60,938 bases of DNA from Acidimicrobiales bacterium (GTDB lineage: Bacteria; Actinomycetota; Acidimicrobiia; Acidimicrobiales; GCA-2861595). Position 1 is the first letter of the stretch. Each line of letters begins with the position of its first letter. This document shows positions 12,047 to 40,900 of this stretch, piece after piece. The position numbers were made by a program, and so were the translations under genes. Under the pieces are notes generated by a model that searched no databases, was not told the origin of the DNA, and saw nothing but the letters and a program-made list of their open reading frames with translations. The stretch covers positions 1 to 60,938 of the forward strand of contig JBKJNA010000215.1 of assembly GCA_046596195.1 (NCBI GenBank), written 5' to 3'.

Positions 12047-13225
12047 GTGCGGGTGCTGTTCACGTGTGCCGCCGGCTATGGCCATCTCCACCCGAAGCTG
12101 CCCCTCGCCGGCGCCCTTGTTCACTCGGGCCACGACGTCGCCTTCGCCATCCCCGAGCGCTTCTGCCCCCGCGTGCGCGACGCCGGCTTCACCGCCTTCC
12201 CGGCCGGGCCCGACGGCCCCGCCCTCGCCGACCAGGTTCGCCGCCGGTTCCCCGAGGGCGCCGACCTCGCTCCAGAGGAGCGACTGCGTTTCGCCTTCAC
12301 CAACATCATCAGGATCGCCGTGCCGGCGGTGCTGACCGACCTGGTGCCGCTGATAAAGGCCTGGGCGCCCGACCTTCTCATTCACGACCCGTCGGACTGG
12401 GCCGCGCCCGTCGCCGCCCACGCGACCGGCACCGTCTACGTCAACCAGAGCTGGGGGCCTCTCCTACCCCGAGCGGACCTTGACCTGGCCGCGGCCGCCG
12501 TTGCGCCCATCTGGGATACGTGGGGCCTGCCTGCGCAGGAGCTCGGGGGGATGTTCGGGCACCTGTACCTCGACCTGTGCCCGCCGAGCTTCCAGGCACC
12601 GCACGCCGCCGATCTCGGCGTAGCCCGCCAGCTCCTGCGGCCCGTCCCCTTCGACGCCGTCGGCGACGAGCACCTGCCGCCGTGGGTGGAGGCGCTGCCC
12701 GATCTCCCCACCGTCTACGTGACGCTCGGCACCTGGTTCAACCTCGAGACCGGGGTGTTCGACACGATCCTCGACGGCCTGCGCGAGGAGCCAGTCAACG
12801 TGGTGGTGACCGTCGGCCACGCCAACGACCCCGCCACCTTCGGCCCCCAGCCGGGCAACGTGCACCTCGAGCGCTACATCCCGGTCTCGCTGTTACTCCC
12901 CCACTGCGACGTGGTCGTCGGCCACGGCGGAGCCGGTTCCACGCTGGCGGCGCTGAGCCACGGGCTCCCGCTGCTCGTCCTGCCTCGCGGCGCCGACCAG
13001 TTCCACAACGCCGAACGCTGCATGGCGTGCGGCGTCGGCCGGTGCCTGCCTCCTCCCGAGCTGCACCCAGATGCGGTGCGGCGCGACGTACGTGCACTGC
13101 TCCGTGAGCCTGAGTTCCGCCGGGCCGCCGGAGCAATGCGCGATGAGATCGCCGCCATGCCGTCGCCGCTCGAGGTCGTCCCCGCGCTGGAGCGCCTGAC
13201 CGGAAAGGCCAGGCGCTCCAGGTAG
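12047..13225 (+). CDS. GT1 glycosyltransferase (MGT/EryCIII-like)
   Basis: GTG after a GGGAGG SD; motifs RVLFT...GYGHLHP, VYVTLGT, HGGAGS and PRGADQFHNA. Confidence 0.92.
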   Translation: MRVLFTCAAGYGHLHPKLPLAGALVHSGHDVAFAIPERFCPRVRDAGFTAFPAGPDGPALADQVRRRFPEGADLAPEERLRFAFTNIIRIAVPAVLTDLVPLIKAWAPDLLIHDPSDWAAPVAAHATGTVYVNQSWGPLLPRADLDLAAAAVAPIWDTWGLPAQELGGMFGHLYLDLCPPSFQAPHAADLGVARQLLRPVPFDAVGDEHLPPWVEALPDLPTVYVTLGTWFNLETGVFDTILDGLREEPVNVVVTVGHANDPATFGPQPGNVHLERYIPVSLLLPHCDVVVGHGGAGSTLAALSHGLPLLVLPRGADQFHNAERCMACGVGRCLPPPELHPDAVRRDVRALLREPEFRRAAGAMRDEIAAMPSPLEVVPALERLTGKARRSR

Positions 13226-13259: not shown

Positions 13260-15230
13260 TCACATGCCGAGCGGGATCCTCGCAACCTTGTTCCCGGTGT
13301 ACTCGGCCACCCAGATGGCGTCCGGCCCCGCAGCGAGGCCCGCCGGGCCGCTGTTGACGGTGGCGAGCGGGAACTCGGTCACCACCCCTGTGGTCGGCGA
13401 GTAGCGGGCCACATGGCCGGTCTCCTCGGTGATCCACAGGTTGCCGTCAGGCCCGCTCGTGATCTGGTGCGGGATGACGTTGGGGAACAACACGGGCAGC
13501 TCGGTGATGACGCCGCTCATGGTGATCCGGGCGATCCTGGCCCGGTCGGTGGCGGCCCCGGTGGACAGCCTGGCTCCATACTCCTCGGTGAAGTACAGGT
13601 CGTTGCCGGTGGGGCCGACGGTGAGGCCGTGTGGCCGGCTGGCCGCCCGGAAGTCCTTCGAGAAGCCCTTGCCTTCCAGTACCGGCGTGGGGAACTCGTC
13701 GATCTGGCCGGTCATGGGGTCGAGGCGGCCGATGGCGTAACCGTTGAGCTCGGTGAACCAGACCTTCCCGTCGGCGGTGACGGCCATGGTGTCGGGCCCG
13801 GCGTTCGGGGTGGGGACGTTGTACTCGGTGAGCTGGCCATCCAGGGTGAGGTGGCCGATCCGGTTCCCCAGCAACTCGCTGAACCACACGCTGCCGTCGG
13901 GTGCGGTGGTGATGTGGTGCGGGTCCGACCCGGCGATGGGAAGCGGGTACTCGTTGAGGTAGACGCCTTCGGGGGACAGCACGGCGATCTTGTCGGTCAT
14001 CGCCTCGGTGACCCAGATGTTGCCGTCACCCCCGATGGTGAGGACGCAGGGCATGCTGTGCTCGGTGGGCGTGGGGTAATGGGTGATCTCACCCGTGGAC
14101 GGCCGCAGGCGCCCGACTCCGTTGGTGTCCATCTCGGCGAACCAGATGTCGCCGTTGGGGTGGACAGCGACGGAGGACGGCCCGCTGCGCACGCCGTTGA
14201 CCATGCCGGCGTCGTACTCCGTGGCGGCGTAGGTGGGCATCAGCATGGCCGGGTCGAGGCGGGCCAGCTTGTTGGAGTAGAAGCCCCCGAACCACATGGC
14301 GTTGTCAGGCCCGCGCACGATTCCGGTGGGGAACGACCCGGCCCTCGACAGCGGGAACTCGGTGATCGTGCCCGTGGGCGTGACCCGGCCCACCTTGTCG
14401 ATCGCGGTGTACCACAGGTTGCCGTCCGGCCCGGCCGCGATCTGGTGGGGGTCGCTGCCCGTCTGGGGGACGGGGAACTCGGTGACGACGCCGGCCAGGG
14501 TCATGCGGGCGACCTTGTTGGCGCTCTCCTCGACGAACCAGATGTTCCCGTCGGGACCGACGGTGATGCCGTGCGGGTGGCTGGCGGCCGTGGGCACCAT
14601 GAACTCCGTGATGCTGCCCCCGGTGGTGATACGCCCGATCTTGCCCGACCCGTTCTCAGAGAACCACATGGCGCCGTCCGGCCCGGCGACGATCGAGTCG
14701 GGGTTGCTGTTCCTGGTGGGGATCGTGAACTCCGTGACGGCACCGGCCGTGGTGACCCGCGCGATCTTCCCGGCGCCGAACTCGGTGACCCACAGGTTGC
14801 CGTCGGGGCCGGCGGCGATGCCGTGGGGGCCGCTCTGACCACCCATCCTGAATTCGGAGATGGCACCGGTGGACGGGTTGAGCCTCCCGACCTTGTGGGC
14901 CAACGTCTCGGTGAACCAGATGTTGCCGTCCGACCCGGCGGCGATGCCCCGGGGGCTGGCCCCGGCCGTGGGGATGGCGTACTCCGTCATCATCCCCGAC
15001 GTGGTGCTGCGGGCGATCTTGTTGGAATCACGCTCGGCGAACCACAGCTCGCCCTGGCGCACGGTTATGGCCGAGGGGCCGGCGAACATCGTGGGGATCG
15101 GGTACTCGCTGAGCCCCGGGTAGACCGACGTCGTCGCCGCTCCCGACGGGAGGCTCGGCAGGGCACCGACCGCCACCACCAGACCGACCCCGAAGGCTGC
15201 AAAGCGCTTCTTCGCTACCAGTTTGGACAT
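13260..15230 (-). CDS. Secreted protein with two tandem Vgb-like beta-propellers
   Basis: Signal peptide followed by about 14 GPDG(N/A)(L/M/I)W(F/V)TE-type repeats. Confidence 0.87.
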   Translation of the reverse strand: MSKLVAKKRFAAFGVGLVVAVGALPSLPSGAATTSVYPGLSEYPIPTMFAGPSAITVRQGELWFAERDSNKIARSTTSGMMTEYAIPTAGASPRGIAAGSDGNIWFTETLAHKVGRLNPSTGAISEFRMGGQSGPHGIAAGPDGNLWVTEFGAGKIARVTTAGAVTEFTIPTRNSNPDSIVAGPDGAMWFSENGSGKIGRITTGGSITEFMVPTAASHPHGITVGPDGNIWFVEESANKVARMTLAGVVTEFPVPQTGSDPHQIAAGPDGNLWYTAIDKVGRVTPTGTITEFPLSRAGSFPTGIVRGPDNAMWFGGFYSNKLARLDPAMLMPTYAATEYDAGMVNGVRSGPSSVAVHPNGDIWFAEMDTNGVGRLRPSTGEITHYPTPTEHSMPCVLTIGGDGNIWVTEAMTDKIAVLSPEGVYLNEYPLPIAGSDPHHITTAPDGSVWFSELLGNRIGHLTLDGQLTEYNVPTPNAGPDTMAVTADGKVWFTELNGYAIGRLDPMTGQIDEFPTPVLEGKGFSKDFRAASRPHGLTVGPTGNDLYFTEEYGARLSTGAATDRARIARITMSGVITELPVLFPNVIPHQITSGPDGNLWITEETGHVARYSPTTGVVTEFPLATVNSGPAGLAAGPDAIWVAEYTGNKVARIPLGM

Positions 15231-15355
15231 GGAGCTGCGCCCTCGTCCCGTCAAAATGTCCCCCTCGCGTGCTCGCGGGCGCGCCGGCCACACGAGCAAG
15301 TAGTTGATGAGGCCTTTATACTAACGCAGCCATGCCCGAAACGGGGAAAGATCAC

Positions 15356-15478
15356 GTGACCGCCACCAACGGGTCCGAATGGGAGCTGGTGGCCGAGACA
15401 ATCCAGGTTCTTGCCGCCGATGAGGGGGGGAGCCGTGATCCCCGGGAGCGGCCGGCACCTCATCCGCACGGGCACTGA
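15356..15478 (+). CDS. Candidate small peptide upstream of lanB (possible leader or precursor)
   Basis: GTG after GGGGAAAG; 40 aa VTATNGSEWELVAETIQVLAADEGGSRDPRERPAPHPHGH; same strand as lanB and 69 bp upstream of it. It is below the ORF-track cutoff. Confidence 0.3.
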   Translation: MTATNGSEWELVAETIQVLAADEGGSRDPRERPAPHPHGH

Positions 15479-15547: not shown

Positions 15548-18500
15548 GTGACTCCGCAGCTCTCGCCGTCGGGATTCTTCGTCCTGCGCACACCGCTTCT
15601 CCCGTACGAGGAGCTGGCGGCATGGGGCGACGGCCTGTCGCGCGCGGGGGGTGGCGACATCTCCGACCGGCAACTTGCCGCCGACCGCACACGACTTCGG
15701 CGCCGCCTCCAGGCCCTCGTCCAGCGTCCGGACGTGCGCGAGGCGCTGTTCCTCGGCTCGCCCGACCTGGAGGGCTCGCTGGATGTCTGGCTCCGGGACC
15801 CCGACTCCGAACGCGGGACCGGGATAGAGCGGGCCTTGGTGAGGTACCTGGTACGCATGGCATCGCGGCCCACCCCATTCGGGTTGTTCGCCGGCGTGTC
15901 ATCGGGCCGCATCGGCCAACGCACCACGCTCACCGTCGACGGGCGGGACCGCTACCGGCGCCACACGCGCGTTGACACCTCCTGCCTCGTCGCCCTGGCA
16001 CGCGACGTCGCCACCGCTCCCGGTGCCGAGCGCCATCTCGCCCTCGTGCCGAACCCCCTTCTCTACCGTTGGGCGGGCGGTTTCCGCTGGGCCCGGTCGT
16101 GCTCGGGCGCAGCAGGGGGCAAGGCCCTGATGGCCCTGCCCGGCACAGCCCTCCTGCGCTCCGCCCTGGCGCTGGCCGCGGGCGGCACGACGGCTGAACA
16201 GCTCGCGGCCGCACTTGCTGCGGGCGGCGGACCGGCGGAGCGTGCCCACCGGTTCGTCGACGAGCTGGTCGCACTCGAGGTGCTCGTACCCGCTCTCGGC
16301 GTCGTCGTCACGGGACGCGAGCCGATCGAGGCGCTCGTCGAACAGCTCGAAGCGTCGGCGCCCACCAGTGACGCGACGCGGCGCCTCCGGGGTGTCGCCG
16401 ACGGGCTGGCCGAACTCGACGGGGCAGGCTTGGGTGCAGCGCCCGAGCGCTATCACCGGTTGGCCCGCATGCTGGCCGAGGCGGGTGCCGCTGGTTCGGC
16501 GGGGATGTTCCACGTCGACCTGGTCAAGGCAGGCGAGGGCGCGACGTTGGGTGGCCAGGTGCTCGACGAGATCCGCCGCGGAGTGGCGCTGCTGCACCGC
16601 ATCTCGCGTCCCAGGCCGCCCGGCGACCTCGACCGCTTCCGGGACGCGTTCGAGCGGAGGTACGAGGGCCGGGAGGTCCCGCTGCTGGAGGCACTGGATG
16701 GTGACGCGGGCGTGGGGTTCGGTCCGTCGGTGTCGTCCGCGCCACTGCTCACCGGGCTGACCTTTCCAGCGGTCGGCGCCGGGGTCACCACCACGCACGC
16801 GGACGAGCTCCTGCTCGCGCGCCTGCTCTCGGCCGCCGGGGGGAAGGAGACGGAGGTCGTCCTGGACGGCGCCGACGTCGACGCCATGGCGACCGGGGCG
16901 GCCGACGTCCCGCTCCCCGGCGCCTTTGCCGTTCTCGCCTCCGTCGAGGCAGCCGGCCAGGAGGCGTTGGACCGTGGAGATTTCCGCGTCTTCGTCCGGG
17001 CCATGGGAGGTCCGTCGGGAGCGTGGCTCCTCGGACGCTTCTGCCACGCCGACGCCACCATCCGCGCCCACGTCGAGGACCACCTGAGGTCAGAGGAGGC
17101 ACAGGACGGCGGAGCGGTGTGGGCCGAGGTCGCCCACCTGCCGGACGGCGCGTATGCCAACGTGGTGGTGCGGCCGGTCCTGCGACCGTACGAGATCCCG
17201 TGCTTCGGGAGGTCCGGCGCCCCGGACGACCGCCAGCTGGCGTTGGACGACCTCCTGGTGTCACTCGTCGGCGGTCGGGTGGTGCTGCGATCGCGCCGGC
17301 TGGGACGGCGGGTGATCCCGAGGATCACGACGGCCCACGACTTCGCCCGCCCGGGGCCGCCCGCGTACCGGTTCCTGGCGGCACTCCAGGTGCAGGGCGT
17401 CACCGCCGGGCTGACGTGGACCTGGGGAGCGCTGACGAGTGCCCCGTTCCTGCCCCGCGTTCGCCACGGCAGGGTGGTCCTGTCCCTCGCCCGCTGGAAC
17501 ATCAGCCGTGCCGAACTGGGCCTGCTGCGCGGCCTCAGCGCAGCGGACCTCGTCCGCCATCTCCACCGGTGGCGGTCGCAGCGGGGGATCCCGCGCCTGG
17601 TGTCGCTGGCCGACGGAGATGCGACCCTGCTCGTCGACTTCGAGAACGTGCTGTCGGCCGAGTCCTTCGCCCACCTCGTCAGAGGTCGTGACCACGCCGT
17701 GGTCGAGGAGGTCTTCCCTTCACCGGACCGGTTGTGCGCCACCGGGCCCGACGGGTCGTTCCTGCACGAGCTGGTCGTCCCCTTCCTCTCCTCGTCGCCC
17801 CCACCTTCGGACAGTGCGCGACCGGAGGTGGCCGCGTCCGTGCGCAGGAGCTTTCCACCGGGCTCGGATTGGGTCTCGGCCAAGCTCTACGCCGGCCCGT
17901 CCACGGTGGACGGGCTCCTGCGAGACGTCATCGAGCCGCTCAGGCGGGAGCTGCTGGGGTCGGGCCGGGCCGACGGCTGGTTCTTCGTGCGCTACGGCGA
18001 TCCGAACTGGCACCTGCGGGCTCGGTTCCACGCCGGACCGGCGGGCGACGGGCGGCAGCTCCTCGACGGGATCTCCGGCGCCCTCGCCGTCGCCCTCGAC
18101 TCCGGCCGGGTCTGGCGGCTCCAGCTCGACACGTACGAGCGGGAGGTCGAGCGGTACGGCGGCGCCCAGGGCATGGCGCTGGCCGAGGAGATGTTCGCCG
18201 TCGACAGCGACGCCGTGATGGAGCTGCTGCACCGGATCCCCAAGGGTGATGCAGGCGCCGAGGACCGCTGGATGATAGCGATGCGAGGGGTCGACCAGCT
18301 GCTCGACGACCTCGGGCTGCTTGGCGCCGGCAAGCTGGCGGTCCTGAAGCGAGGCCGGGACATCTACGCCAGGGAGCACCGGGTCGACGGGAGGCTGGAG
18401 GAGCAGCTCAGCCGGCGCTTCCGCACGAATCGCCCCGCCCTGGAGGCCCTCCTCGAGCCGGCGGCCACACCAGTTGGCGCCCTCGGGGCGTGTGTCCAGG

Positions 18501-18730
18501 CCCTGCGCGAGCGGTCGCTGCGCATTGCCCCGCTGGCCGCCGCCCTGAGAGCCCTGGAGCGAGAGGGCGAGCTGAGCTGCAGCGTGGAGGACCTGGCCAC
18601 CAGCTACGTCCACCTCCACCTCAACCGGGTGCTCGCATCGGCGCACCGGGCCCAGGAGCTGGTGGTGTACGACTCCCTCCTGCGGCTCCACCGGTCGCGC
18701 ACCGCCCGGCAGCGGCCGGCCGAGCGCTAG
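15548..18730 (+). CDS. lanB: Full-length class I lanthipeptide-type dehydratase (glutamylation plus elimination domains)
   Basis: Motifs FVLRTPLLP, YLVRMASRPTPFGLFAG, GPSGAWLLGRF, FLPRV, WVSAKLY, WFFVRYGDP.WHLRARF, YEREVERYGG and SYVHLHLNR. Confidence 0.93.
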   Translation: MTPQLSPSGFFVLRTPLLPYEELAAWGDGLSRAGGGDISDRQLAADRTRLRRRLQALVQRPDVREALFLGSPDLEGSLDVWLRDPDSERGTGIERALVRYLVRMASRPTPFGLFAGVSSGRIGQRTTLTVDGRDRYRRHTRVDTSCLVALARDVATAPGAERHLALVPNPLLYRWAGGFRWARSCSGAAGGKALMALPGTALLRSALALAAGGTTAEQLAAALAAGGGPAERAHRFVDELVALEVLVPALGVVVTGREPIEALVEQLEASAPTSDATRRLRGVADGLAELDGAGLGAAPERYHRLARMLAEAGAAGSAGMFHVDLVKAGEGATLGGQVLDEIRRGVALLHRISRPRPPGDLDRFRDAFERRYEGREVPLLEALDGDAGVGFGPSVSSAPLLTGLTFPAVGAGVTTTHADELLLARLLSAAGGKETEVVLDGADVDAMATGAADVPLPGAFAVLASVEAAGQEALDRGDFRVFVRAMGGPSGAWLLGRFCHADATIRAHVEDHLRSEEAQDGGAVWAEVAHLPDGAYANVVVRPVLRPYEIPCFGRSGAPDDRQLALDDLLVSLVGGRVVLRSRRLGRRVIPRITTAHDFARPGPPAYRFLAALQVQGVTAGLTWTWGALTSAPFLPRVRHGRVVLSLARWNISRAELGLLRGLSAADLVRHLHRWRSQRGIPRLVSLADGDATLLVDFENVLSAESFAHLVRGRDHAVVEEVFPSPDRLCATGPDGSFLHELVVPFLSSSPPPSDSARPEVAASVRRSFPPGSDWVSAKLYAGPSTVDGLLRDVIEPLRRELLGSGRADGWFFVRYGDPNWHLRARFHAGPAGDGRQLLDGISGALAVALDSGRVWRLQLDTYEREVERYGGAQGMALAEEMFAVDSDAVMELLHRIPKGDAGAEDRWMIAMRGVDQLLDDLGLLGAGKLAVLKRGRDIYAREHRVDGRLEEQLSRRFRTNRPALEALLEPAATPVGALGACVQALRERSLRIAPLAAALRALEREGELSCSVEDLATSYVHLHLNRVLASAHRAQELVVYDSLLRLHRSRTARQRPAER

Positions 18731-18765: not shown

Positions 18766-19899
18766 CTACGACCCGAGAACGGCCTCGGGCTGGAGGGCGT
18801 CGCAGGCCGGACAGGCAGGCACCGGCAAGAGCGCCTCGCGGCGCACCTGCGACGTGCGAAGGTCGGCGACCAACACACCGCCGGTGGACACCGGGTTCTG
18901 AAAGCGGCCGACGCTGCGGAGCGCCTCCATGGAGACGAGGCCGGCCACAAGCGAGGCGAAGCCGGCCAGGAGCCCGGGCTCGGGGGCGATGCCGCCCTCG
19001 CCGAGCCATTGCTGGTAGGCGACATGCTCGTCGTAGTGGCGTATGTGTGACAGCCGGCGCTCGACCAGGCACTCGTGGCACCCGGGCGTGCCCGGCGTGA
19101 CACATGGCCCGACCACAGCGTCAAGCGCAGTTACCGAATGGAACAGGGAGACAACCCCCGCCGCCATGCACGCCCGGTTCGCCAGCGAAGCGGCCGCCCC
19201 GACCTCGTCGACCTCCACCACGACCAGGTCGACGTCGGTGGCGATCGACCCGACAGGATCGGTCGTAGAGCGCACGGCCGGGCGTGGCCGACGGCCGGGA
19301 CGCACGGCCACGCATTCCTCGGCCGTCACCTCGGACCTCGGTCTCCCCAGGTCGGACGGCACACCGGGCACGGCCCACTGGTCGCCCGGCGTGACCGCTG
19401 CCGCGTCCGCCAGGACCAACTCGCCGATGCCTGCTGCCGCCAGCTGGCGCGCCGCCAGCCGGCCCACCGGACCGAGCCCCACCACGGCCACGCGCGCCGC
19501 CGTGGTGGCCACCCGCACGGCAACGGGGCTGCGGCCCAGCTCGCTGACGACCTCATCGGTCGGCCCGCCGGCCCTACCCGCCGGCCAGCCAAACTCCTTG
19601 CCGTCTGCATCGGCGCCGTCCGATACGACGCCCTGGGAGTAGAGGTGTGCGATCAGGTCGGTCGCCGGTCCGGGCTCCAATTCCATGCGATCCACGAGGT
19701 CGGCCAGACTGCAGCCACCTTCGAGAGCGCCCAGCAGGCGCGGGCCGAAGTCGCCCACGCCGGGCCCGCCGACGCGCAGCACCCGCCCCGCGCTGCGCAG
19801 CTGGAGCATATCGGGGCCCATCGGGATGACACGGAAGAAGCCCGGCAGCATCGGCCGGGCCGGGATGGGGGCGACATCGTCTCCGCCGCCGGCCGTCAC
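18766..19899 (-). CDS. E1/ThiF-like leader-binding partner of YcaO (TOMM C protein) with an N-terminal RRE-like domain
   Basis: N-terminal winged-helix-like segment, VAVVGLGPVG, GCHECL and a C-terminal CPAC. Start overlaps the cupin stop (GTGA). Confidence 0.85.
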   Translation of the reverse strand: MTAGGGDDVAPIPARPMLPGFFRVIPMGPDMLQLRSAGRVLRVGGPGVGDFGPRLLGALEGGCSLADLVDRMELEPGPATDLIAHLYSQGVVSDGADADGKEFGWPAGRAGGPTDEVVSELGRSPVAVRVATTAARVAVVGLGPVGRLAARQLAAAGIGELVLADAAAVTPGDQWAVPGVPSDLGRPRSEVTAEECVAVRPGRRPRPAVRSTTDPVGSIATDVDLVVVEVDEVGAAASLANRACMAAGVVSLFHSVTALDAVVGPCVTPGTPGCHECLVERRLSHIRHYDEHVAYQQWLGEGGIAPEPGLLAGFASLVAGLVSMEALRSVGRFQNPVSTGGVLVADLRTSQVRREALLPVPACPACDALQPEAVLGS

Positions 19900-20501
19900 C
19901 GGCGGCCCGGGGCGGAGTCATAGGCGAGCGGCCCCGTGCCACGAGGTGCGTAGCCGGGGGGGAGGTAGAGGTTGAAACCCTCGGCCAACGGGTCGTCGGC
20001 GAACAGGTGGATGCACACAGACCACTCCAGGCCGGCGTTGGCGACGGCGTGGATGTCGGCCGGCGGCGGCCGGATCGGCATGACGTCCCCGGGGGCGTGC
20101 ACCACCCGTGCCACCTCGACGAGCATCGGCTCCCCTGGCAACAGCTGCGACGACGGCTCGTACCTGGTCTCCTCCTCCGTCCCCCGGTACACCCCGACGA
20201 CGCCCCAGCTGCCGTGGTCGTGGGCGGGCAACGAGAGGCCCGGCGCCGTGATGGTGGTGAAGACGGAAAAGTCCGGACCGGAGTGCAGGAGGTGCTTGCC
20301 GAACCCCGTCGCCGGGCGATCGGATGCAACGGCCTCGGGCAGCAGGTCCGGATCGGCGAGGGCGGCTGCGAGTACGGGGCACAGCGCCTCCGGCACCCCG
20401 TAGTCGCCGCTCCCCCGCTGCGCGGCCAGCACCCCGGCCACGGCACCGAAGAGGTGCTCGAGGCCGGGGGTGCTCGCTGTCTGCATGCTGACGGTCGCCA
20501 C
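19896..20501 (-). CDS. Cysteine dioxygenase-like cupin
   Basis: HDHGSWGVVGVYRGTEEETRY...DIHAVAN...IHLF, a 3-His CDO-type pattern. Confidence 0.82.
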   Translation of the reverse strand: MATVSMQTASTPGLEHLFGAVAGVLAAQRGSGDYGVPEALCPVLAAALADPDLLPEAVASDRPATGFGKHLLHSGPDFSVFTTITAPGLSLPAHDHGSWGVVGVYRGTEEETRYEPSSQLLPGEPMLVEVARVVHAPGDVMPIRPPPADIHAVANAGLEWSVCIHLFADDPLAEGFNLYLPPGYAPRGTGPLAYDSAPGRR

Positions 20502-20512
20502 GTGCGTGTTAC

Positions 20513-21721
20513 CTAAACGCCCGGACGGAACAACTCGGTGGTCGCAGTGGTGAAGTACCCGCTCGGCCCTGCCGAGAAGCCACCCACGATGAGCAGGTCA
20601 CCGGCGGTGAGGGTCACCAGCTGGGCGTCGTCGCGAACTCTGCTCATGGACTGGGTGAAGGACCAGGTGCCGGTGGCCGGGTTGTAGATCTCGGCTGTGG
20701 CCGACAGGCCCCCACCGGCCATCAGGAACCGGCCGTCGGCCAGCATCTGTGAGGATCCCTCGACCCTTGGCAGGTTCATGGCGCCGGTGTAGGACCAGGT
20801 GCCGGTGTTGACGTGGTAGATCTCGGCGGTCGAACTCGTGCAGGCATCGGGCATCGGCGGAGAGACGTTCCCGCCGGGGCAGTGGCCACCGGCCACGATG
20901 ACGTCGCCGGACGCGAGCAGGCCCGCGCTCTGGAGGAATCGCGGCTCGTGCATCGAACCGGTCTCCGTCCACACGCCCGTTGCCGGGTCGTAGATCTCGG
21001 CCGAGGCGCTCACCGCCTCGGTTGGAGCGCCGACCTGGGACTGGCGACCGCCCGTGACCAGCACGCGCCCGTCGGCCAGTGTGGTGGCGCTGTGGCCCCA
21101 GCGCGGGTGGTTCATGGGAGCGACCCCAACCCACTTCCCGCCGTGCGCCGAATCGAAGATCTCGGCGGTGGCCTGGCTGGCGCCGGTGCAGCCGATCCCA
21201 CCGGCCAGCAGGACCTGGCCACCGGCGAGCAGGGAGGCCGTGGCGCTCACCCGGCAGGTGCTCATGGGCTTGGCGGACCGCCACTTCCCGTTCTTCGGGT
21301 TGTACACCTCTGCCGTCGCCGTGATGGGGGCGTTCCTGCCGGCGACGCCGCCGGCGGCCAGCACGTTGCCGTTGGGCAGCGTGACGAGCGCGTGCGCGTA
21401 CCGGGCCTCGCTCATGCTGCCGGTGGCCGACCAGGTCCCGGTCGCCGGGTCGTACAACTCTGCGGCGGCCACGTAGTACTTCGCATCGAGGCTGAAGATG
21501 CCGTCGAAGGCGTTGTACCCGCCGGCGACCAACACCTGCCCGCTCTGCAGGAGGGTCGCTACGGCACCGAGGCCAGCGCCACCCCCCTCTCGAGCCACCG
21601 CCATGCTGCCCGTCGGGCCCCACGACCCTCCAGTGTCGGCTGATGCCGGGAGCCCGGCGCTCCCGGTGAGCGCCACCGCCGCCACCACCGCCACCCGCGC
21701 CACAGTCGTCCTGATCTTCAC
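20513..21721 (-). CDS. Secreted Kelch-repeat protein
   Basis: GTG after an AAGGGGA SD; signal peptide; about 7 repeats of R..H.ATLL.DG.VL.AGG...AE.YDP.TG.W...GSM. Confidence 0.88.
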   Translation of the reverse strand: MKIRTTVARVAVVAAVALTGSAGLPASADTGGSWGPTGSMAVAREGGGAGLGAVATLLQSGQVLVAGGYNAFDGIFSLDAKYYVAAAELYDPATGTWSATGSMSEARYAHALVTLPNGNVLAAGGVAGRNAPITATAEVYNPKNGKWRSAKPMSTCRVSATASLLAGGQVLLAGGIGCTGASQATAEIFDSAHGGKWVGVAPMNHPRWGHSATTLADGRVLVTGGRQSQVGAPTEAVSASAEIYDPATGVWTETGSMHEPRFLQSAGLLASGDVIVAGGHCPGGNVSPPMPDACTSSTAEIYHVNTGTWSYTGAMNLPRVEGSSQMLADGRFLMAGGGLSATAEIYNPATGTWSFTQSMSRVRDDAQLVTLTAGDLLIVGGFSAGPSGYFTTATTELFRPGV

Positions 21722-21743
21722 AGTGTCCCCTTTGCAGTTGGTT

Positions 21744-22637
21744 TCAAGGCCCGGCATTGCTGCCGGAGCCCGGTCGCGACGCCAGCCCACCGGGCGACGA
21801 CGAAACCTCCCCATCGGGAGCCTTGCCCGCCGAGGAATCCCTGACCGAGGCCGAAGACTTCCCGCCGCCTGTCGGCTCCCCCGACATTCGGACCTCAGTA
21901 TGCACGGTGAAGGGCGTCCGCAAAAGGCCTTCTTTGAAATGAACGCCGGAATAGCCTTCGCCGCAGTAACAGCGGAGAATGTCCAGCAGCCGCCCGACCT
22001 TCATCGTCGCACCACGGTCGAGGCGGCGAAGCTCCTCGCAGTCAAGCAGGCTGTGGTATGTCGCCAGATCTTCGTCCTGCGGCGTACCCGAAAGATCACC
22101 CCGCCGTATCCTCGGCCAGCACCCGCGGAACACGTCGAACGCGAGCAGGTCCGCCCTCCTTTCGAGCGCGGGGCCATCGTCGGTGGGCAGCACCGGCATC
22201 TCGGCCTGGGCCACGATGGCACCGGCGTCGACCTCGGCGGTCATCACGTGCACGGACACGCCTGCGGGCGTGCCGTCGATCACCGCCCATTGGAGCGGGT
22301 CCAGCCCACGGTTGTACGGCAGGTACGAACGGTGGACGTTCACCCAGCCCCACCTCGGGAGGTCCAGCACCCGGCGCGGCACGATGGGAGCGAAGCCGCA
22401 GCACACTCCCACGTCCGGGGCGACGGCCTCGAGCTTGCGGTGGGCGACCGCACTGGTGAAGCTGCGGCCGTAGAAGACGAGACCGGGATCGACCCCGGCC
22501 GCATCGGCGATCACCCGGGAATGTGGGCTGGGCGGTGAGTTGAGCCCGAGACCGACGATCTGGTCACCCTGCTCGACGATCAGCTCCACGATCCGTGCGC
22601 CCACGTGCCGGTCGCCACAGAACAGCACCTTGGTCAC
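21744..22637 (-). CDS. N10-formyl-THF-dependent formyltransferase (Fmt-like N-terminal domain)
   Basis: Motifs VNVHRSYLPYNRG, GVSVH and VDAGAI. Start overlaps the peptidase stop (GTGA). Confidence 0.88.
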   Translation of the reverse strand: MTKVLFCGDRHVGARIVELIVEQGDQIVGLGLNSPPSPHSRVIADAAGVDPGLVFYGRSFTSAVAHRKLEAVAPDVGVCCGFAPIVPRRVLDLPRWGWVNVHRSYLPYNRGLDPLQWAVIDGTPAGVSVHVMTAEVDAGAIVAQAEMPVLPTDDGPALERRADLLAFDVFRGCWPRIRRGDLSGTPQDEDLATYHSLLDCEELRRLDRGATMKVGRLLDILRCYCGEGYSGVHFKEGLLRTPFTVHTEVRMSGEPTGGGKSSASVRDSSAGKAPDGEVSSSPGGLASRPGSGSNAGP

Positions 22638-23389
22638 CGTGCGTGCGCCACGATGGCCAGGGAACGATCGCGGAGGCGGCGCTCCTCCTCGGTCAGTGGC
22701 GCGCCCAGGGTTGCCAGCCAGCCCTCCTCGACCGAGGCTGCGTCAGCGCCCGTCGGCATCGCCCGCCCGGAACGGAACGCTTGCCAGAACTCGGCTTCTC
22801 CGAGCCGCTCGAACAGGTGCCCCGTGAACGAGGCGGCGTGCAGGTACTGCACCGCGCGGGACCTGACCGAATCGCGATGCTCGCTCACCGGGCGTGCGCC
22901 TGCCATCGCGGTCAGGTCGGCCAGCGAGATGCGCCAGCCCTCCTCCCGGAAGACCTCCATCCAGCGGTGGGGGCTCAGGTGGTAGAAGGGCCATGCCGGC
23001 CCGGCCAGGCGGAGCCGGCCGTCCACGTGCACCGCCAGGCCCTCGTTGAGCACCGGGTCCGGCGAACGCCCGGCAACGGCGTGGACGAGCTCGTGCGCCA
23101 ACCCGGCCAGCACGCCGTGGCCGTCGCCGTTCACCGGCAGCACGACGTGCGAACCCCTGGTCCGCGCCACCCCGCTACCGCCGTAGACGGTCACCACGAC
23201 CGGATCGGGCGCCACCGAAAGGAAGGCGGCGATGCGAGCCACCCACGCCTCCGCCCGCTGCTCGACCGCCGGCACCACGTCAGCGAGGACGCCGGCCGAC
23301 GGTTGGCCACCTTCCCCGGGCACGTAACCCACGGAGCAGACGACCGCCGCTACAGCCCCGTGCTCGCCCGCCTCCTCGTCGGCGCTCAT
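22634..23389 (-). CDS. Cytoplasmic HExxH zinc metallopeptidase (gluzincin/MA-like)
   Basis: LAHELVHAV followed by LNEGLA; no signal peptide; ATG overlaps the YcaO stop (ATGA at 23389-23386). Confidence 0.75.
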   Translation of the reverse strand: MSADEEAGEHGAVAAVVCSVGYVPGEGGQPSAGVLADVVPAVEQRAEAWVARIAAFLSVAPDPVVVTVYGGSGVARTRGSHVVLPVNGDGHGVLAGLAHELVHAVAGRSPDPVLNEGLAVHVDGRLRLAGPAWPFYHLSPHRWMEVFREEGWRISLADLTAMAGARPVSEHRDSVRSRAVQYLHAASFTGHLFERLGEAEFWQAFRSGRAMPTGADAASVEEGWLATLGAPLTEEERRLRDRSLAIVAHAR

Positions 23390-24762
23390 GACATCGGGCA
23401 CGGCAACCGGTTGAGGTCCTCCTCAGCCAGGTGGGGCCATCCCAGGGTAGATGCCATCGTCCGAATGCGCTCCGACCCCAGGTGCGGGTAACGGGCGTCA
23501 CCGTGGATGTCGACGGCGCCGGGGGCGAAGACCTTTACCGTCCGAAAGCCGCACCTCGCCGCATCCGAGCTGGTGAGCTCGGTGACGAGCGCCTCGAGCC
23601 CCACTCCCCCGAGCCGGCTGACGCAGGCATCGAGGTCGCCCCGCGTGGTCCCGGTGCTCAGGTTCGCGAGGGCGCCGAGCGCGACCTCCTCCTCCGACGC
23701 GGCCAGGAAGGCGGCCCGGCCGCCGCCTTCGGCGCCGGCGTAGTAGTGGGCATTGTCCCACAGGGTGCGGATCTCGGCCTGCGGGAACGACGACCGGCTG
23801 TCCCAGGCCAGCCCGTGGAAGCCGGCCAGGAGCTGGGCCGTCTCGAACAGCGCCTTGCGCGCCGCCTCAGCGGGATCGAGCCGGCTCGCCGCGCCCATTA
23901 CCAGGGACGGGCGATCCTCGCTGTCACTCATGGCAAGGCAGGCGATGGTGGGGATCCCGGAGTCCGGCGTCATGTCCAGCAGCACGAACTTGAAGTCGGG
24001 GAGCGAGAAGTGGGCCTCGATGAGACCGGCCACACCGTCAGCCGCCCCTGGCTGCGGGACCACCCGTCGCGGCGTCCGGTGGTGCAGCCAGTGGATCATC
24101 AAGGCGTCGCGCTCGACGACCTCGTAGAGCCCGGCGAGGACAGCCGCGTCCATGGAGACGTGGGCTGCCAAGCCTGTGCTCATCACCCACCGGGTGAAGT
24201 TGTTCGGTGGTTGCAATCCCACGGACGGATGCACGAGCGCAGCGGGGACGAGTGCGTAGCAGCGCCGGCTCAGCGACCATGCCCACGCCCAGTCGATGGC
24301 CTCGGAGCTGGCCCGACGTGTGACTCCTGGTGTGGTCGCGTACTGCCGGTCGGAGAGGAGGCCGAACCGCCTGAGGGGCACGGCCCACGCCGAGACGTCG
24401 TCCTCCGACGCCCGCAGGATCGTCGACCGGTCATGGGCGAGTGCGAAGCAGTACCGTTCGATCGCCTCGGCTACTGCCTTCAACCAGGCCAACTCCGGGT
24501 CCTCGGCGACACCCATGCCGATGATGTCGAAACCGTGGTCGTGGTCACCGACGCCGCGTCTCGGCCCCCTCGCCACGTACACCGGAAGGGTGGGAAGTCC
24601 GGGGGCGGTGGCGAAGCTGCGACATCGCGAGACGATGCCATACGGACCGGCCGCGGCCCGGGCGGCGACCATCGCCCGTTCCAGGGGACCGGGCCCGGGC
24701 GTGCCGAGGTTGAACCCCAGGTATTCGGGCCTCAGATGCGCCGGAAGGTCAACACTGCGCAT
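23386..24762 (-). CDS. YcaO-family cyclodehydratase
   Basis: ATP-binding motifs AEAIERY, STGLAAH and LYEVVERDA; Pro-containing C-terminus LNRLPCPMS, like azoline-forming YcaOs. Confidence 0.93.
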   Translation of the reverse strand: MRSVDLPAHLRPEYLGFNLGTPGPGPLERAMVAARAAAGPYGIVSRCRSFATAPGLPTLPVYVARGPRRGVGDHDHGFDIIGMGVAEDPELAWLKAVAEAIERYCFALAHDRSTILRASEDDVSAWAVPLRRFGLLSDRQYATTPGVTRRASSEAIDWAWAWSLSRRCYALVPAALVHPSVGLQPPNNFTRWVMSTGLAAHVSMDAAVLAGLYEVVERDALMIHWLHHRTPRRVVPQPGAADGVAGLIEAHFSLPDFKFVLLDMTPDSGIPTIACLAMSDSEDRPSLVMGAASRLDPAEAARKALFETAQLLAGFHGLAWDSRSSFPQAEIRTLWDNAHYYAGAEGGGRAAFLAASEEEVALGALANLSTGTTRGDLDACVSRLGGVGLEALVTELTSSDAARCGFRTVKVFAPGAVDIHGDARYPHLGSERIRTMASTLGWPHLAEEDLNRLPCPMS

Positions 24763-24954: not shown

Positions 24955-25317
24955 TCAGTCGCTGCTCGCCATAGCGGTCATGGTCGAGTTGGTGGTGGTG
25001 CAGAAGCTGACGTCGTCGGCATCCCACTCGGCCTCGTCGAGCGACGTGACCTGCATGGCCGTCATCGTCGAGTTGGTCGTGGTGCAGAAGCTGACATCGT
25101 CGGCATCCCACTCGGCCTCGTCGAGCGACGCGACCTGCATGGCCGTCATTGTCGAGTTGGTCGTCGTACAGAAGCTGACGTCGTCGGCATCCCACTCCGC
25201 CTCGTCGAGCGACGCTACCTGCATGGCCGTCATTGTCGAGTTGGTCGTCGTGCAGAAGCTGACATCGTCGGCATCCCACTCGGACTCGTCCAGGAACCAC
25301 GTATTGATGGCACCCAT
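24955..25317 (-). CDS. Multi-core RiPP precursor peptide (120 aa, four cassettes)
   Basis: ATG at 25317 after AGAAGGAGGT; MGAINTWF then four copies of LDE(S/A)EWDADDVSFCTTTNSTMTAM(QVAS/QVAS/QVTS/ASSD); lies between the dehydrogenase and YcaO genes. Confidence 0.9.
   Translation of the reverse strand: MGAINTWFLDESEWDADDVSFCTTTNSTMTAMQVASLDEAEWDADDVSFCTTTNSTMTAMQVASLDEAEWDADDVSFCTTTNSTMTAMQVTSLDEAEWDADDVSFCTTTNSTMTAMASSD
24958..25293 (-). repeat. Four tandem 84-bp coding repeats (precursor cassettes)
   Basis: GCATCCCACTC recurs every 84 bp; differences between copies are mostly at synonymous positions. Confidence 0.97.
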
Positions 25318-25465
25318 GCCACCACCTCCTTCTGGTCGGTACGGATTCGACCACATCGGGCCGCACCATGCAAGCCTTTCCTGCTGAACTCTTACAAAAT
25401 CGGAGGCTATGTGTCTACCACACCTAGAATGAGCCCTACTGTGAGTAGGAGTCACCCCCAAACGG

Positions 25466-26932
25466 TCACTTCGGGTGTTGATCCCCACCCGAAGACACGG
25501 ACGGTCTCGAGCCGACGAGGAACTCGCCGACGCTCGTCTCCTCGTAGTAGTTCAGCCCCGCCAACGCGGCGAAGGCATCGGAGTCGCCCCCACCCACCGC
25601 ACACGGCGCAAGGCCCATGGCGGTGGCCACCAGGTACATCGTCTGGTAGAGGACGCCGACGTTCTTCAGGATCGTGGCGTACGGGATGGCCTCGTACTTG
25701 AACATCACCTTTCCGAAGCGGGCGGTGACGGCCAGGAGCACCTGGGGCCGATCGCGCATGCCCGTCTTGGCGCACGTCTGCTGGAGCAGGGACTCGATGC
25801 CCGGGTTCAGCCCCGCCGTCACCACGCCGAGCTGATGGCGCACCGGGTCGTAGTGGTAGAGGCCGGGGTCGAGGCCGTCGCAATGGCGCACCACAGGGTA
25901 GAGCTCCAGCTCGTACAGGGCTCCCCCGGTGGGGTACGGCCGGGCCATGCCGAGCGGCCGTGGGCTGCCGTCGGAGAAGGTGGTGACCTCGTGGCGGACG
26001 CCGGCGCTGCGGTAGAGGAACTCGCCGAGCTGCCCGACAGTGATGGGGGCGTCGTCGTCCTGCAGCCGCCGCGACTGTCGCCCTTCGAGCACGGTCGTGA
26101 ACGACGGGTCGCAAGAGGCGAGGGCGCTGATGTCGGGTCGCCGTAGGTGGACGACCTCGGTGGCGGGCGGGTCGACCAGCGGCAGCGGCGGAAAGCGGTC
26201 CCGGAGCGGCCACGTCGCGCCGTAGCCGTTGGCATGGCGTCCCTGGCGGCTGCGGGAATGGAAGAACAGGTCAGGGAGGCTCCACTGCGCCAGGGCCATG
26301 GTGGAGTCCTCCTCGTCGCCGTCGGCGCCCACCAGCAGCGTGACGTCGACCAGCAGGGCGGCGAGCGCGGTAAGGACCTCCGCAGGAAGGCCGAGCCCGG
26401 CGGCGAGGTCGGCCACGCGCGCCGGTCGGGCGAGCGACGCGACGAAGGCCGCCACCCGGGCGTCGTGCAGGACGGCCAGGGCGGAGGAGCGTGGCGACTC
26501 GAGCACCATCTCGCCCCCGGCCCTGTGCAGCAAGGCGAACCGGGACAGGACGACGGCGCCGTCGGCGACAGAAGCCGGCGAGGCATGAGCCATCCTCGCG
26601 ACCAGTGGCTTCACCGTGACCAGTGGCACGCCGTGGAAACGGAGCTCGCGCTGGATCCAACCCCGCTCGTCGAGCCGATCGAGCACCGACGCCAGCAGCG
26701 AGGCCGCGGCGGCGTCGCCGGGCGGCGCTGCGGCCCGCAGCTGCGCCTCCGGCGCTCCCGTCCCGAGCAGGATCTCCAGCGGGGCGCTCAGCTCGTCCAC
26801 GAGCGGGCCCAATGCAAACCGCTTGGAGCCACGCGACAGCAGCAGGCGGCCGTCCGTGCCCATCTCTGCGGTGGCGTCGTCACGCAGGCGCAGTGACGCC
26901 TCTAGCCCCGCCTCCCCCTCAGTGGCAACCAC
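25466..26932 (-). CDS. ThcOx/SagB-type FMN-dependent azoline dehydrogenase with N-terminal RRE-like domains
   Basis: Motifs VLSRFA...MVLESP, DLFFHSRSRQGRH, RQSRR, PYPTGGALYELELY and catalytic KY (MFKY); GAGGAGG SD. Confidence 0.92.
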   Translation of the reverse strand: MVATEGEAGLEASLRLRDDATAEMGTDGRLLLSRGSKRFALGPLVDELSAPLEILLGTGAPEAQLRAAAPPGDAAAASLLASVLDRLDERGWIQRELRFHGVPLVTVKPLVARMAHASPASVADGAVVLSRFALLHRAGGEMVLESPRSSALAVLHDARVAAFVASLARPARVADLAAGLGLPAEVLTALAALLVDVTLLVGADGDEEDSTMALAQWSLPDLFFHSRSRQGRHANGYGATWPLRDRFPPLPLVDPPATEVVHLRRPDISALASCDPSFTTVLEGRQSRRLQDDDAPITVGQLGEFLYRSAGVRHEVTTFSDGSPRPLGMARPYPTGGALYELELYPVVRHCDGLDPGLYHYDPVRHQLGVVTAGLNPGIESLLQQTCAKTGMRDRPQVLLAVTARFGKVMFKYEAIPYATILKNVGVLYQTMYLVATAMGLAPCAVGGGDSDAFAALAGLNYYEETSVGEFLVGSRPSVSSGGDQHPK

Positions 26933-37932: not shown

Positions 37933-40900
37933 ATGGCAGACAAGCGCCAGGCCACGCGCAAGAAGGCCCGGAAAGAGAACAAGAAGAGCATGCTCGGCGT
38001 GTGGACGGCGGTGATCGTCCTCGTGCTCGTCGGCTCCTACTTCGCCGTCATCGAGGTGAACCGGCCGAAGGTGCCCGGTGACAACCTGCGCCTCGACTCC
38101 TTCGTCGACCTGGCCGAGCGCGGCCGTCTCAAGAGCGCCACGATCCTCAATTACGACTCGTACGCCGTGGGGAACTACGTGCGGGACGACGAGACGACCC
38201 ACAAGTACAACGCCGTGTACCTCAAGGAGAGCCAGGGCCTCCTGGTCGACGTGCTGCTCGAGAACCGGGTCGCCACAACCGTCGACCAGCAGACCAAGAA
38301 GCGGCTGATCTCCCTCGTCGCCACCGTCCTCCCCGGCTTCGTCCTCATCGTGTTGTTCGTGTACCTGATCCTGTCGTCGCGCCGCGGGACGGGCCTGTTC
38401 AAGGTCAAGAGCGGCGCCCGCAAGATCGAGCCCGAGCCCGGCGGCGTCACCTTTGCCGACGTGGCCGGCCAGGACGCAGCGGTGGCCGAGCTGCGGGAGA
38501 TCAAGGACTTCCTGGCCGACCCGGGGCGCTACGCCGCCGTCGGCGCCCAGATCCCCAAAGGGGTGCTGCTCTACGGCCCTCCGGGGTGCGGCAAGACCCT
38601 GCTGGCCAAGGCGGTGGCGGGCGAGGCGGGGGCCAGCTTCTATTCCATCTCCGGTTCCGACTTCGTGGAGATGTACGTGGGGGTGGGCGCCGCCCGCGTG
38701 CGGGACCTGTTCAGGGTCGCCCGCGAGAATGCCCCGGCGGTGATCTTCATCGACGAGCTCGACTCCATCGGCCGGTCGCGCGGTGGTGCGTCCTCCACCG
38801 TGAACGACGGGGGCGAGCGCGAGCAGGCGCTCAACCAGATCCTCGCCGAGATGGACGGGTTCTCCGCGTCCGACGGCATCATCGTCCTGGCCGCCACCAA
38901 CCGCCCTGACATCCTCGACCAGGCGCTCCTCCGGCCGGGCCGCTTCGACCGCAGCATCGGCCTGGAGCGGCCCGACGAGAGCGCCAGGGTGGCCATCCTC
39001 GCCATCCACGCCAAGGGCAAGCAGCTCGACGCCGACGTCGACCTGGCGGCGGTGGCGGCGCAGGCTGTGGGCTTCACGGGCGCAGACCTGGCCAGCGTGC
39101 TCAACGAGGCCGCCCTGCTGGCGGCCCGGGCGGGCAGGTCCGAGATCTCCCAGGCAGAGCTCGACGAGGCCGTGCAGCGCATCCTCAGCGCGCCCGAGCG
39201 CCAGCGCCGCCTGTCCATGCGCGACAAGAGCATCGGCCGGCGCTACAGCGAGCAGGACAAGGTCACCTTCGCCGACGTAGCCGGCCAGGACCCGGCCGTC
39301 GAGGAGCTGCGGGAGATCAAGGAGTACCTGTCCGAGCCCGAGCGCTACGCGGCGCTGGGTGCGGCTGTGCCCAGGGGGGTCCTGTTGTTCGGGCCGCCCG
39401 GGTGCGGCAAGACCCTCATGGCCAGGGCGCTGGCGGGCGAGGCCAACGCCGCCTTCCTCTCGGTGAGCGCCAGCGAGGTCGCCGGGTCGCTCGTGGGGGA
39501 AGGCGCGTTGAGGATCCGCGACCTGTTCGCCGAAGCCAGGCAGATGGCGCCCGCCATCTTGTTCATCGACGAGCTCGACTCGCTGGGCCGCTCACGAGCG
39601 GGCACGACGGGGGCCGACCGGGGCTCCAACTCCAGCCACGACGACCAGGCCATCAACCAGATCCTCACCGAGCTCGACGGCTTCACCCCCTCCACCGGCG
39701 TCATCGTGCTCGGCGCCACCAACCGGCCCGACGTGCTCGACCCCGCCCTGCTCCGGCCGGGCCGCTTCGACCGCACCATCGGGCTCGATTGGCCCAACGA
39801 CGTGGCCCGCCTCGCCATCCTCACCCTGCACGCGAAGGGAAAGGCACTCTCGGCTGACGTCGACCTCGAGGCCATCGCCGGTCGGGCCAACGGGCTGAAC
39901 GGCGCCGACCTGGCCAACATCATGAACGAGGCCGCCCTCCTCGCCGCCCGCCACGAGCAGGAGTCGGTGTCGCAGGAGGACCTGGACCTCGCGCTCCAAC
40001 GAACCCTCCAGGCCCCCGACCGCCAGCGCCGGCTGTCCATGCGGGCCCGCAGCGTCGGCCGGCGCTTCGCGGCGGACGAACGGGTCACCTTCGCCGACGT
40101 GGCGGGCGTCGACGACGCCGTCGAGGAGCTTCTCGACGTGCGGGACTACCTGGCCGAGCCCGACCGCTTCGCCAAGCTGGGCGCCACCCCGCCCAAGGGG
40201 ATCCTTCTCACCGGGCCCCCGGGCTGCGGCAAGACCCTCCTGGCCAGGGCCGTGGCCGGGGAGGCCAACGCCGCCTTCATCTCCGCCTCCGGCGCCGACT
40301 TCGTCGAGATCTTCGTGGGCGAGGGGGCGGCTCGTGTGCGTGACCTGTTCGCCGAGGCGAGGTCGATGGCGCCGGCCATCGTGTTCATCGACGAGATCGA
40401 CGCCATGGCCGGGCACCGCTCGTCCGGCCCCGACGCCTACGGGGGCAGCCGGGAACAGGACGCCACGCTCAACCAGCTACTGGTCGAGCTCGACGGGTTC
40501 GAGGGCCGCGAGGCGGTGATCGTCATGGCTGCCACCAACCGCCCTGACATGCTCGACCGTGCCCTCCGCCGCCCGGGCCGGTTCGACCGCCAGGTCGAGA
40601 TCACCCTCCCCGACCGCAACGGGCGGCTGGCCGTGCTCGAGGTCCACGCCAAGGGCAAGGCGCTCGGTCCCGACGTCGACCTCGCGAAGCTGGCCGGCCT
40701 GACCCCGCAGTTCTCGGGCGCCGACCTTGCCAACGTGCTCAACGAGGCCGCCCTCCTGGCCACGCGCCGAGGCATACCCCACGTCACGATGGACCTCCTC
40801 GACGAGGCCATCGACCGTGCCTTCCTGGGCATCACGTCGCGGCGCCACATCATGTCCGAGGAGGAACGCCGGGTCACCGCCTACCACGAGGCCGGCCACG

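Follow-up and report, generated by a model that had tools for sequence, protein, structure and literature searches.

In most bacterial ribosomal peptide pathways one leader serves one core, and a short recognition element that travels with each core is rare outside cyanobacteria, fungi and plants. The E-peptides of the cyanobactins carry one to four hypervariable cores with short recognition sequences on both sides, and they are described as undergoing YcaO heterocyclisation with the help of an E1-like leader-binding part, followed by oxidation (PMC4663559). The thiovarsolin precursor VarA holds repeats and is encoded beside a YcaO gene, in a family that ranges from non-repeating precursors to five repeats; a small product is reported from each repeat, and the cluster is described as having no dedicated protease (PMC6511847). 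Azoles and LanB-type dehydration occur together on a linear peptide in the goadsporin type (PMC5303826), and the dehydrazoles, such as carnazolamide, are described as hybrid peptides of azoles and dehydroamino acids (PMC10676384). Several cores per polypeptide, served by one enzyme, are reported for microviridins and other graspetides (PMC5934393, PMC8939145). Here we analyse a stretch of 60,938 nucleotides (nt) from a metagenome-type assembly of an Acidimicrobiales bacterium (contig JBKJNA010000215.1), referred to as the window, in which a short gene lying between a dehydrogenase gene and a YcaO gene encodes a precursor peptide of four cassettes, each with its own acidic element and an identical core.

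We consider it probable, at roughly 0.6, that this gene encodes the precursor of ribosomal azol(in)e peptides of a so far undescribed family in which every core would be accompanied by its own recognition element, by a mechanism that we infer below. A first-pass annotation of the DNA had described eight N-terminal residues followed by four units of 28 amino acids (aa), and translation together with Tandem Repeats Finder bears this out: a single array is found at 24970-25290 with a period of 84, 3.8 copies, 93% matches, no indels and a score of 544. The residue counts given there are also correct. The 13-aa core SFCTTTNSTMTAM is identical in all four cassettes and contains 1 Cys, 2 Ser and 5 Thr (8 of 13 residues), and the acidic element varies across the cassettes at position 4 alone (S/A). 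At the nucleotide level the four units differ pairwise at 6-19 of 84 positions. The strong Shine-Dalgarno sequence already noted is GGAGG, 7 nt before the ATG. A consensus scan around the gene returned no sigma-70 promoter site and no terminator site, and the precursor has no match in NCBIfam or Pfam. We also note that the N-terminal MGAINTWF (25294-25317) shares M1 and A3 with the core end plus spacer MTAMQVAS (25210-25233), with positions 4-5 similar and about half of the 24 nt matching; the likeness is weak, and MGAINTWF may be a decayed cassette piece.

Codon differences were counted over all 45 pairs of ten cassettes, four from the window, four from G460 (record L021) and two from G295, both genomes of the same genus. 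The core shows 126 synonymous against 16 non-synonymous differences, all 16 of which are one Thr/Ser change; among the window cassettes only (6 pairs) the count is 21 to 0. The acidic element is invariant among the ten cassettes at L1, D2, E3, E5, W6, D7 and D10, and is kept in first and internal cassettes alike. This is in contrast to the spacer, which is not kept (13 synonymous versus 112 non-synonymous over the 45 pairs). It could be argued that there is no real gene here, and that the repeat is non-coding, that the antisense open reading frame (ORF) at 24980-25387 (+) is the true one, or that the four copies are an assembly artefact. A six-frame control over the acidic element and core lends something to this view, in that an antisense frame with coinciding wobble scores 0.66 synonymous versus 0.71 for the sense frame, as do Logan contigs from four soil runs, which break within the repeat and none of which spans it. 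Because the antisense frame scores almost equally, the synonymous count demonstrates selection on a frame, not which strand is read. The strand is indicated by other observations. A start codon (ATG, TTG or GTG) with an AGGAGG-type site lies 8-9 codons 5' of the first cassette in four genomes, the window's and likewise G460, G295 and G649, and a stop codon lies 4-6 codons past the last core in four genomes. The precursor is co-directional with the operon, independent gene calls in unrelated datasets took the same frame, and G460 has four cassettes with substitutions of its own. An absence of a real gene is thereby extremely unlikely, and the precursor is a real, conserved gene of the minus strand.

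With the Logan contigs interrupted inside the repeat, it is the assembly that gives exactly four cassettes, together with the second genome, G460, which also has four. Word depth, which is not a copy number, is 14-21 for repeat pieces versus 5.6-7.3 for the flanks in soil run X1, and 72-101 versus about 16 in run X4. The latter run, from another study, contains a close relative on a 6263-nt contig, a size equal to that of the longest contig of the YcaO protein P0005 (96% identical); its repeat pieces reach 4.5-6.4 times the flank word depth (24600-25700), a weak hint of at least four cassettes there. At window position 25047, contigs of all four soil runs have C where the window has T, which would make the third spacer QVAS and not QVTS; the C may instead reflect part of cassette 2 placed over cassette 3.

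Ten precursors make up the family set; six are metagenome proteins, and the others come from four genomes within a single genus. Their cassette counts are 4, 4, 2, 2, 2, 2, one fragment, 1, 1 and 1. Two cassettes are present in G295, in G649, where the core is a different one (SFCTTGSSSMCV) and the YcaO is just 50% identical, and in P0084 and P0059; P0082 represents the final cassette of some longer gene, and P0085, P0086 and P0087 have one cassette each. Cassette number, whose variation the first-pass annotation had raised as a possibility, ranges from 1 to 4 among relatives, and the YcaO cluster is found in all four genomes of the genus, with LanB adjacent in three of them. A common plan runs through the ten precursors: 8-10 N-terminal residues of alternating hydrophobic character, the motif L(D)ExEW..(D/E)V, then SFCTT, residues that vary, and a tail. 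The cores align as SFCTT-x-x-(S/T)-(S/T)-(M/H)-(C/T/S)-(A/V), followed by a tail that is acidic in most members. Position 8 is Cys in P0059. At position 11 each member has a residue that a YcaO can cyclise (Cys, Thr or Ser). The alignment suggests that the core ends at position 11-12 and not 13, so that the core guessed earlier probably runs 1-2 residues too far towards the C-terminus.

The three single-cassette members (36-42 aa) carry the acidic element directly before SFCTT, where it makes up more than half of an 18-21-aa leader. A tail, short and mostly acidic, stands behind every core including the last in all members, which implies that C-terminal trimming or recognition would be intrinsic to the pathway even with one cassette. 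It is probable, judging from these relatives, that the ancestral unit was a leader of 8-10 residues, the acidic element, a core of about 11-13 residues from SFCTT and a short acidic tail. The spacer of multi-cassette members corresponds to the initial four tail residues, which makes a tandem duplication of tail start, acidic element and core the simplest history; in this genus it would have placed two or four cassettes behind a single start codon. The earlier proposal that the element is repeated with each core is supported on its comparative side, by the conserved internal elements, the drifting spacer, the leaders of single-cassette members and the range of 1-4 cassettes; its other side, binding of the enzymes to each copy, stays a prediction.

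The same comparison bears on how the chain would be divided. One alternative is a cut only at ..DV|S, which would yield three 28-aa peptides and one of 17 aa, with the acidic stretch being part of the products and not just a tag. V|SFCTT is the most conserved boundary, and a role in the product would also explain the constraint on internal acidic elements. Such a cut would produce unequal products from one gene, however, and the acidic element of the single-cassette relatives lies only upstream of the core, where it would not enter the product likewise; we regard it as quite unlikely. A second alternative, unlikely in our estimate, is that the cassettes are modified and never separated, giving one chain of ~110-120 aa or a few large pieces with four modified modules, in the manner of graspetides. 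It agrees with the lack of a recognised RiPP (peptide made by the ribosome and modified after translation) protease in the operon, with the absence from the window's contig (C24) of all 16 matches that the genome has to the S8 subtilisin family PF00082, and with the graspetide precursors of several core repeats that have been reported (PMC8939145). Against it, the single-cassette relatives place a leader and a C-terminal tail round the same core, an arrangement that suggests a small excised product; the free evolution of the spacer is what would be expected of a discarded linker; and synteny with the cluster extends to a HExxH protein and an M20 peptidase.

The genes around the precursor, which heads the operon 190 nt 5' of the YcaO gene, are collected in Table 1 together with its parts. 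Several operon genes overlap by a few bases.

Table 1. Coordinates of the precursor gene, its parts and the neighbouring genes in the window.
Feature	Position	Strand	Remarks
Precursor gene	24955..25317	-	120 codons + stop; 8 N-terminal residues + four 28-aa cassettes; from translation, period-84 repeat and homologues
N-terminal 8 codons, MGAINTWF	25294..25317	-	M-x-x-hydrophobic-x-x/hydrophobic-x-aromatic/aliphatic; same alternation in relatives (8-10 residues)
Cassette 1: LDESEWDADDV, SFCTTTNSTMTAM, QVAS	25210..25293	-	
Cassette 2: LDEAEWDADDV, SFCTTTNSTMTAM, QVAS	25126..25209	-	
Cassette 3: LDEAEWDADDV, SFCTTTNSTMTAM, QVTS	25042..25125	-	
Cassette 4: LDEAEWDADDV, SFCTTTNSTMTAM, C-terminal tail ASSD	24958..25041	-	
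Shine-Dalgarno GGAGG	25325..25329	-	7 nt 5' of ATG at 25317
Intergenic stretch 5' of precursor	25318..25465	-	conserved blocks (alignment, 5 loci); putative promoter/regulatory region
Flavin mononucleotide (FMN)-dependent azoline dehydrogenase, SagB type, N-terminal ThcOx domain	25466..26932	-	PF22767 93 bits, PF00881; TIGR03605 174.3 bits vs cut-off 78.4
YcaO cyclodehydratase, SagD family	23386..24762	-	PF02624 199.9 bits; TIGR03604 254 bits vs cut-off 219.25
255-aa HExxH protein, invariant HELVH...NEGLA	22634..23401	-	candidate zinc hydrolase/protease; motif invariant in 3 orthologues
Formyltransferase-like protein, start uncertain	21744..22637	-	PF00551 82.9 bits; under cut-offs of all NCBIfam equivalogs
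Kelch beta-propeller	20513..21814	-	Kelch families; true start probably downstream, before signal-peptide-like hydrophobic stretch (by eye)
Cupin, thiol dioxygenase family	19896..20501	-	3-orthologue profile: 3uss E=3e-14, 6xb9 E=8e-14 (3-mercaptopropionate and cysteine dioxygenases)
ThiF/E1-like YcaO partner, putative leader-binding	18766..19899	-	PF00899 68.9 bits; TIGR03882 65 bits vs cut-off 36.9; ~95-aa conserved N-domain
Full-length LanB (1060 aa), glutamylation + elimination domains	15548..18730	+	PF04738 523 bits, PF14028 203 bits; MibB 5ehk E=2e-44; convergent with operon

Profile matches over curated cut-offs confirm the site between the dehydrogenase and YcaO genes that the first reading had assigned. 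The best solved relative of the dehydrogenase is the cyanobactin oxidase CyaGox (5lq4), matched over residues 52-476 with E=3e-85, and those of the YcaO are LynD, TruD and MusD (E about 1e-17 to 1e-12). TIGR03882, matched by the ThiF-like protein, is the family named 'TOMM precursor leader peptide-binding protein', where TOMM stands for thiazole/oxazole-modified microcin. The HExxH protein gave no Pfam or NCBIfam match at E≤0.01, only a weak one to PF13699 (E=0.022) over the HExxH region, and its profile found no meaningful match in the PDB. The genome, 95% complete, has one YcaO (PF02624) and one Lant_dehydr_C domain (PF14028, inside LanB), both at the locus, and no match at E≤0.01 to LanC (PF05147) or TfuA (PF07812). 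A lanthipeptide was rejected as a reading, LanB being present with no LanC in the genome, and so was a thioamide peptide, no TfuA being found there. The 48-aa ORF at 15332-15478 was considered as a LanA and rejected, having no Cys and few Ser or Thr.

This enzyme set also invites comparison with thiopeptide- or pyritide-like macrocycles, formed by [4+2] cycloaddition of dehydroalanines derived here from Ser1 and Ser8 of each core. The core does have Ser both at its start and at position 8; LanB, YcaO, dehydrogenase and ThiF-like protein occur together, and the C-terminal domain of LanB matches TIGR03891 ('thiopeptide-type bacteriocin biosynthesis protein'). The sole Lant_dehydr_C of the genome nevertheless sits in the full-length LanB, so that no stand-alone [4+2] pyridine synthase is found, an absence that is unproven in a genome 95% complete, and position 8 is replaced by Cys in P0059. 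We judge such a macrocycle very unlikely.

For the reading that we prefer, of one element per core, the following course can be proposed. The ThiF-like protein would receive the acidic element of each cassette at its N-terminal domain, with LanB and the dehydrogenase's ThcOx-type domains as possible further docking sites. The YcaO would cyclodehydrate Cys3 and the Cys, Thr or Ser at core position 11, the dehydrogenase would oxidise the resulting azolines to azoles, and LanB would probably dehydrate some Ser and Thr. Each core may then be freed at ..(D/E)V|S and past position 11-13, with the HExxH protein of the operon and/or the nearby M20 peptidase as candidate cutters, and one translation would give four copies of one small product. 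Four copies per translation had been proposed from the start; the single-cassette relatives, with leader and tail, speak for it, and cleavage into cassettes is its conjectural part. Co-folding of the ThiF-like N-domain (1-130) with precursor residues 1-36 scored 0.02 versus a mark of 0.32, which counts neither for nor against docking. As to a possible recognition element of the wHTH type in this N-domain, a phmmer search with it against the PDB gave chance matches only (E of at least 0.49), and hhalign against the alignment of the dehydrogenase N-domain gave a probability of 1.2%. The ThiF-like protein of G460 (L021 15400-16377 +) is without ~50 Rossmann-like residues that are present in the window and G295, and its N-terminal 95 residues are conserved; this fits a docking role better than an adenylating one.

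A bolder version is speculative, and we hold it as possible rather than probable. Each 28-aa unit would be an autonomous module of leader, core and tail, whose element of ~11 residues suffices, wherever it stands in the chain, to bring in the full set of enzymes, with the dose tuned by duplication (1, 2, 4, perhaps more). The product could be a hybrid scaffold of azoles and dehydroamino acids, perhaps with a sulfinate made by the thiol dioxygenase, N-formylation, or head-to-tail closure without a PatG-type enzyme.

Several points weigh against the reading of one element per core. Binding, the residues modified, cleavage and the roles of the tailoring genes are all deduced from sequence, a dedicated RiPP protease family is not recognised in the operon, and the near-equal score of the antisense frame has been given above. 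The cassette counts derive from short-read assemblies, which are able to collapse 84-nt repeats, and the short database proteins are known as proteins only and could be incomplete. Further points come from G295. Its LanB lies on a separate contig, and its main cluster (L025, G295:C64, 11100-11255) keeps the upstream blocks with no precursor between dehydrogenase and YcaO; the two-cassette gene is found on an 8-kb contig (L022, G295:C125, 4519-7918) alongside another dehydrogenase of only 70% identity. This split could have arisen by mis-binning or rearrangement, or it could reflect a satellite locus. An M20 peptidase lies directly 3' of the two-cassette precursor locus on the 8-kb contig.

The window and G460 (L021) share one gene order from dehydrogenase to LanB. 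G649 retains the operon from precursor to ThiF, and its dehydrogenase is relocated. On the G649 record (L032, G649:C64; 9613-10923 and about 17200-18241) we observed a DDE transposase (PF07592) directly 5' of the precursor, and the dehydrogenase there is represented by the nitroreductase part, behind the ThiF-like gene. The thiol dioxygenase homologue (19896-20501) in the RiPP operon is kept in all four genomes of the genus; our literature search on YcaO together with cysteine dioxygenase found no paper with both terms. A stand-alone condensation-domain gene of the nonribosomal peptide synthetase (NRPS) type is located between an amidohydrolase gene and the dehydrogenase in G460 (L021 6894-8408 +) and G295 (L025 12771-14177 -). 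The window has none at that site, and its nearest match is inside the NRPS at the window start (37% identity).

The YcaO was found in none of 18 genomes from the family's other nine genera, and no further genus was found among 401 genomes of the order (E≤1e-40) or 401 of the class (E≤1e-30). Public assemblies contain ~25 clusters of related YcaO proteins with 41-96% identity, two records of which are labelled Acidimicrobiales and Actinomycetota by their sources. The longest contigs of the precursors P0084 and P0059 are equal in size to those of the YcaO proteins P0012 (29874) and P0027 (6805), and the precursors are probably linked to these YcaOs for that reason.

Searches with the precursor itself gave few relatives. 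A class-wide six-frame search returned matches in 79 of 401 genomes at E≤1, of which those in G000 and G295 only are convincing; the next ones (E 7.9e-4 and 9.2e-4, 24-31% identity, open frames of 673 and 160 aa) were treated as compositional. With phmmer, 1.84 billion representatives yielded 31 matches at E≤0.001. Of four inspected, P0059 and P0082 belong to the family and two (P0083, P0072) are repeat proteins unrelated to it; the remaining 27 (350-2542 aa, 19-36% identity) were assumed to be compositional. All six matches of a short-protein search carry the motif. A word-indexed search against proteins of 66-210 aa found no relative, and the exact sequence is absent from that collection, for which reason the precursor gene was probably never called. 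Scans of metagenome contigs gave no relative, either with the precursor (116 pattern matches) or with the YcaO alignment (194 pattern matches), and a scan of genome contigs gave 85 pattern matches with one relative.

Other genes of the window were noted in passing. The M20 peptidase (10717-11955, -) is syntenic with the cluster in the window and at both G295 loci, and an opposite-strand ORF (10840-12483) overlaps it. Two propellers of the Vgb-lyase family are encoded at 13260-15299 (-) and 42470-43759 (-); the first has four matched stretches and abuts LanB, and in both G460 and G295 its homologue likewise borders the cluster. The window starts with an NRPS module of adenylation, thiolation and condensation domains (283-3546, -), a class III aminotransferase (3552-4913, -) and a vanadium-chloroperoxidase-like protein (DUF6851 + VCPO_2nd, 8201-9802, -), which may form a second biosynthetic locus. 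A 1161-aa FtsH-like protein with three AAA stretches ahead of an M41 peptidase domain is encoded at 37933-41418 (+).

If the 11-residue acidic element suffices for recognition, it would be among the smallest portable tags for a set of YcaO, dehydrogenase and LanB, and it would also offer a natural template for obtaining more than one peptide, or more than one kind of peptide, from a single gene. Shifts of cassette number between close relatives would be a simple route to an altered product dose. The locus further points to a product, as yet uncharacterised, of a soil actinobacterial genus that is uncultured. Our literature searches found no paper with the motif SFCTT and did not return the family, although precursor lists in genome-mining supplements may include it; nor did they find the combination of thiol dioxygenase, HExxH, Kelch and formyltransferase genes.

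The locus lacks a defining feature of each of the cyanobactins, goadsporin-type peptides, thiopeptides, lanthipeptides, thioamide peptides, dehydrazoles and graspetides, and is not assigned to any of them. It does have the parts of YcaO-dependent azol(in)e (TOMM or linear azole) systems, namely a SagD-family YcaO, a ThiF-like partner that matches a leader-binding family, a SagB dehydrogenase and an adjacent Cys/Ser/Thr-rich core behind a leader, the leader being unusually short and repeated. Goadsporin is N-terminally acetylated and derives from one core only. The present locus, in contrast, combines multiple cassettes with one full-length LanB, and encodes a formyltransferase-like protein but no recognised acetyltransferase. 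Microviridins and other graspetides differ in having one leader for all cores, ATP-grasp chemistry and unrelated enzymes, and the dehydrazoles, as described, in LanM-like DUF4135 dehydration, a long leader of the nitrile hydratase-like (NHLP) type, a single core and an S8 leader protease. Thiovarsolin VarA is the nearest actinobacterial YcaO-linked repeating precursor; it has an N-terminal leader followed by repeats and undergoes TfuA thioamidation, whereas a ThiF-like protein and SagB are found here, and no TfuA. The cyanobactins have a long single N-terminal leader, with an RSI element that guides heterocyclisation, and PatA/PatG-type subtilisins, in contrast to the eight residues and the leader-like element repeated per cassette in the window, which has no such subtilisin on the contig. 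The window's locus differs further in its actinobacterial host, in a heterocyclase split in two genes, and in the added LanB, thiol-dioxygenase-like, HExxH, Kelch and formyltransferase-like genes. The cyanobactin E-peptides are nonetheless the nearest in logic and in oxidase: the locus shares with them 1-4 flanked cores per precursor, a tail behind every core including the last, a YcaO like LynD, TruD and MusD, and an oxidase of the ThcOx/CyaGox type.

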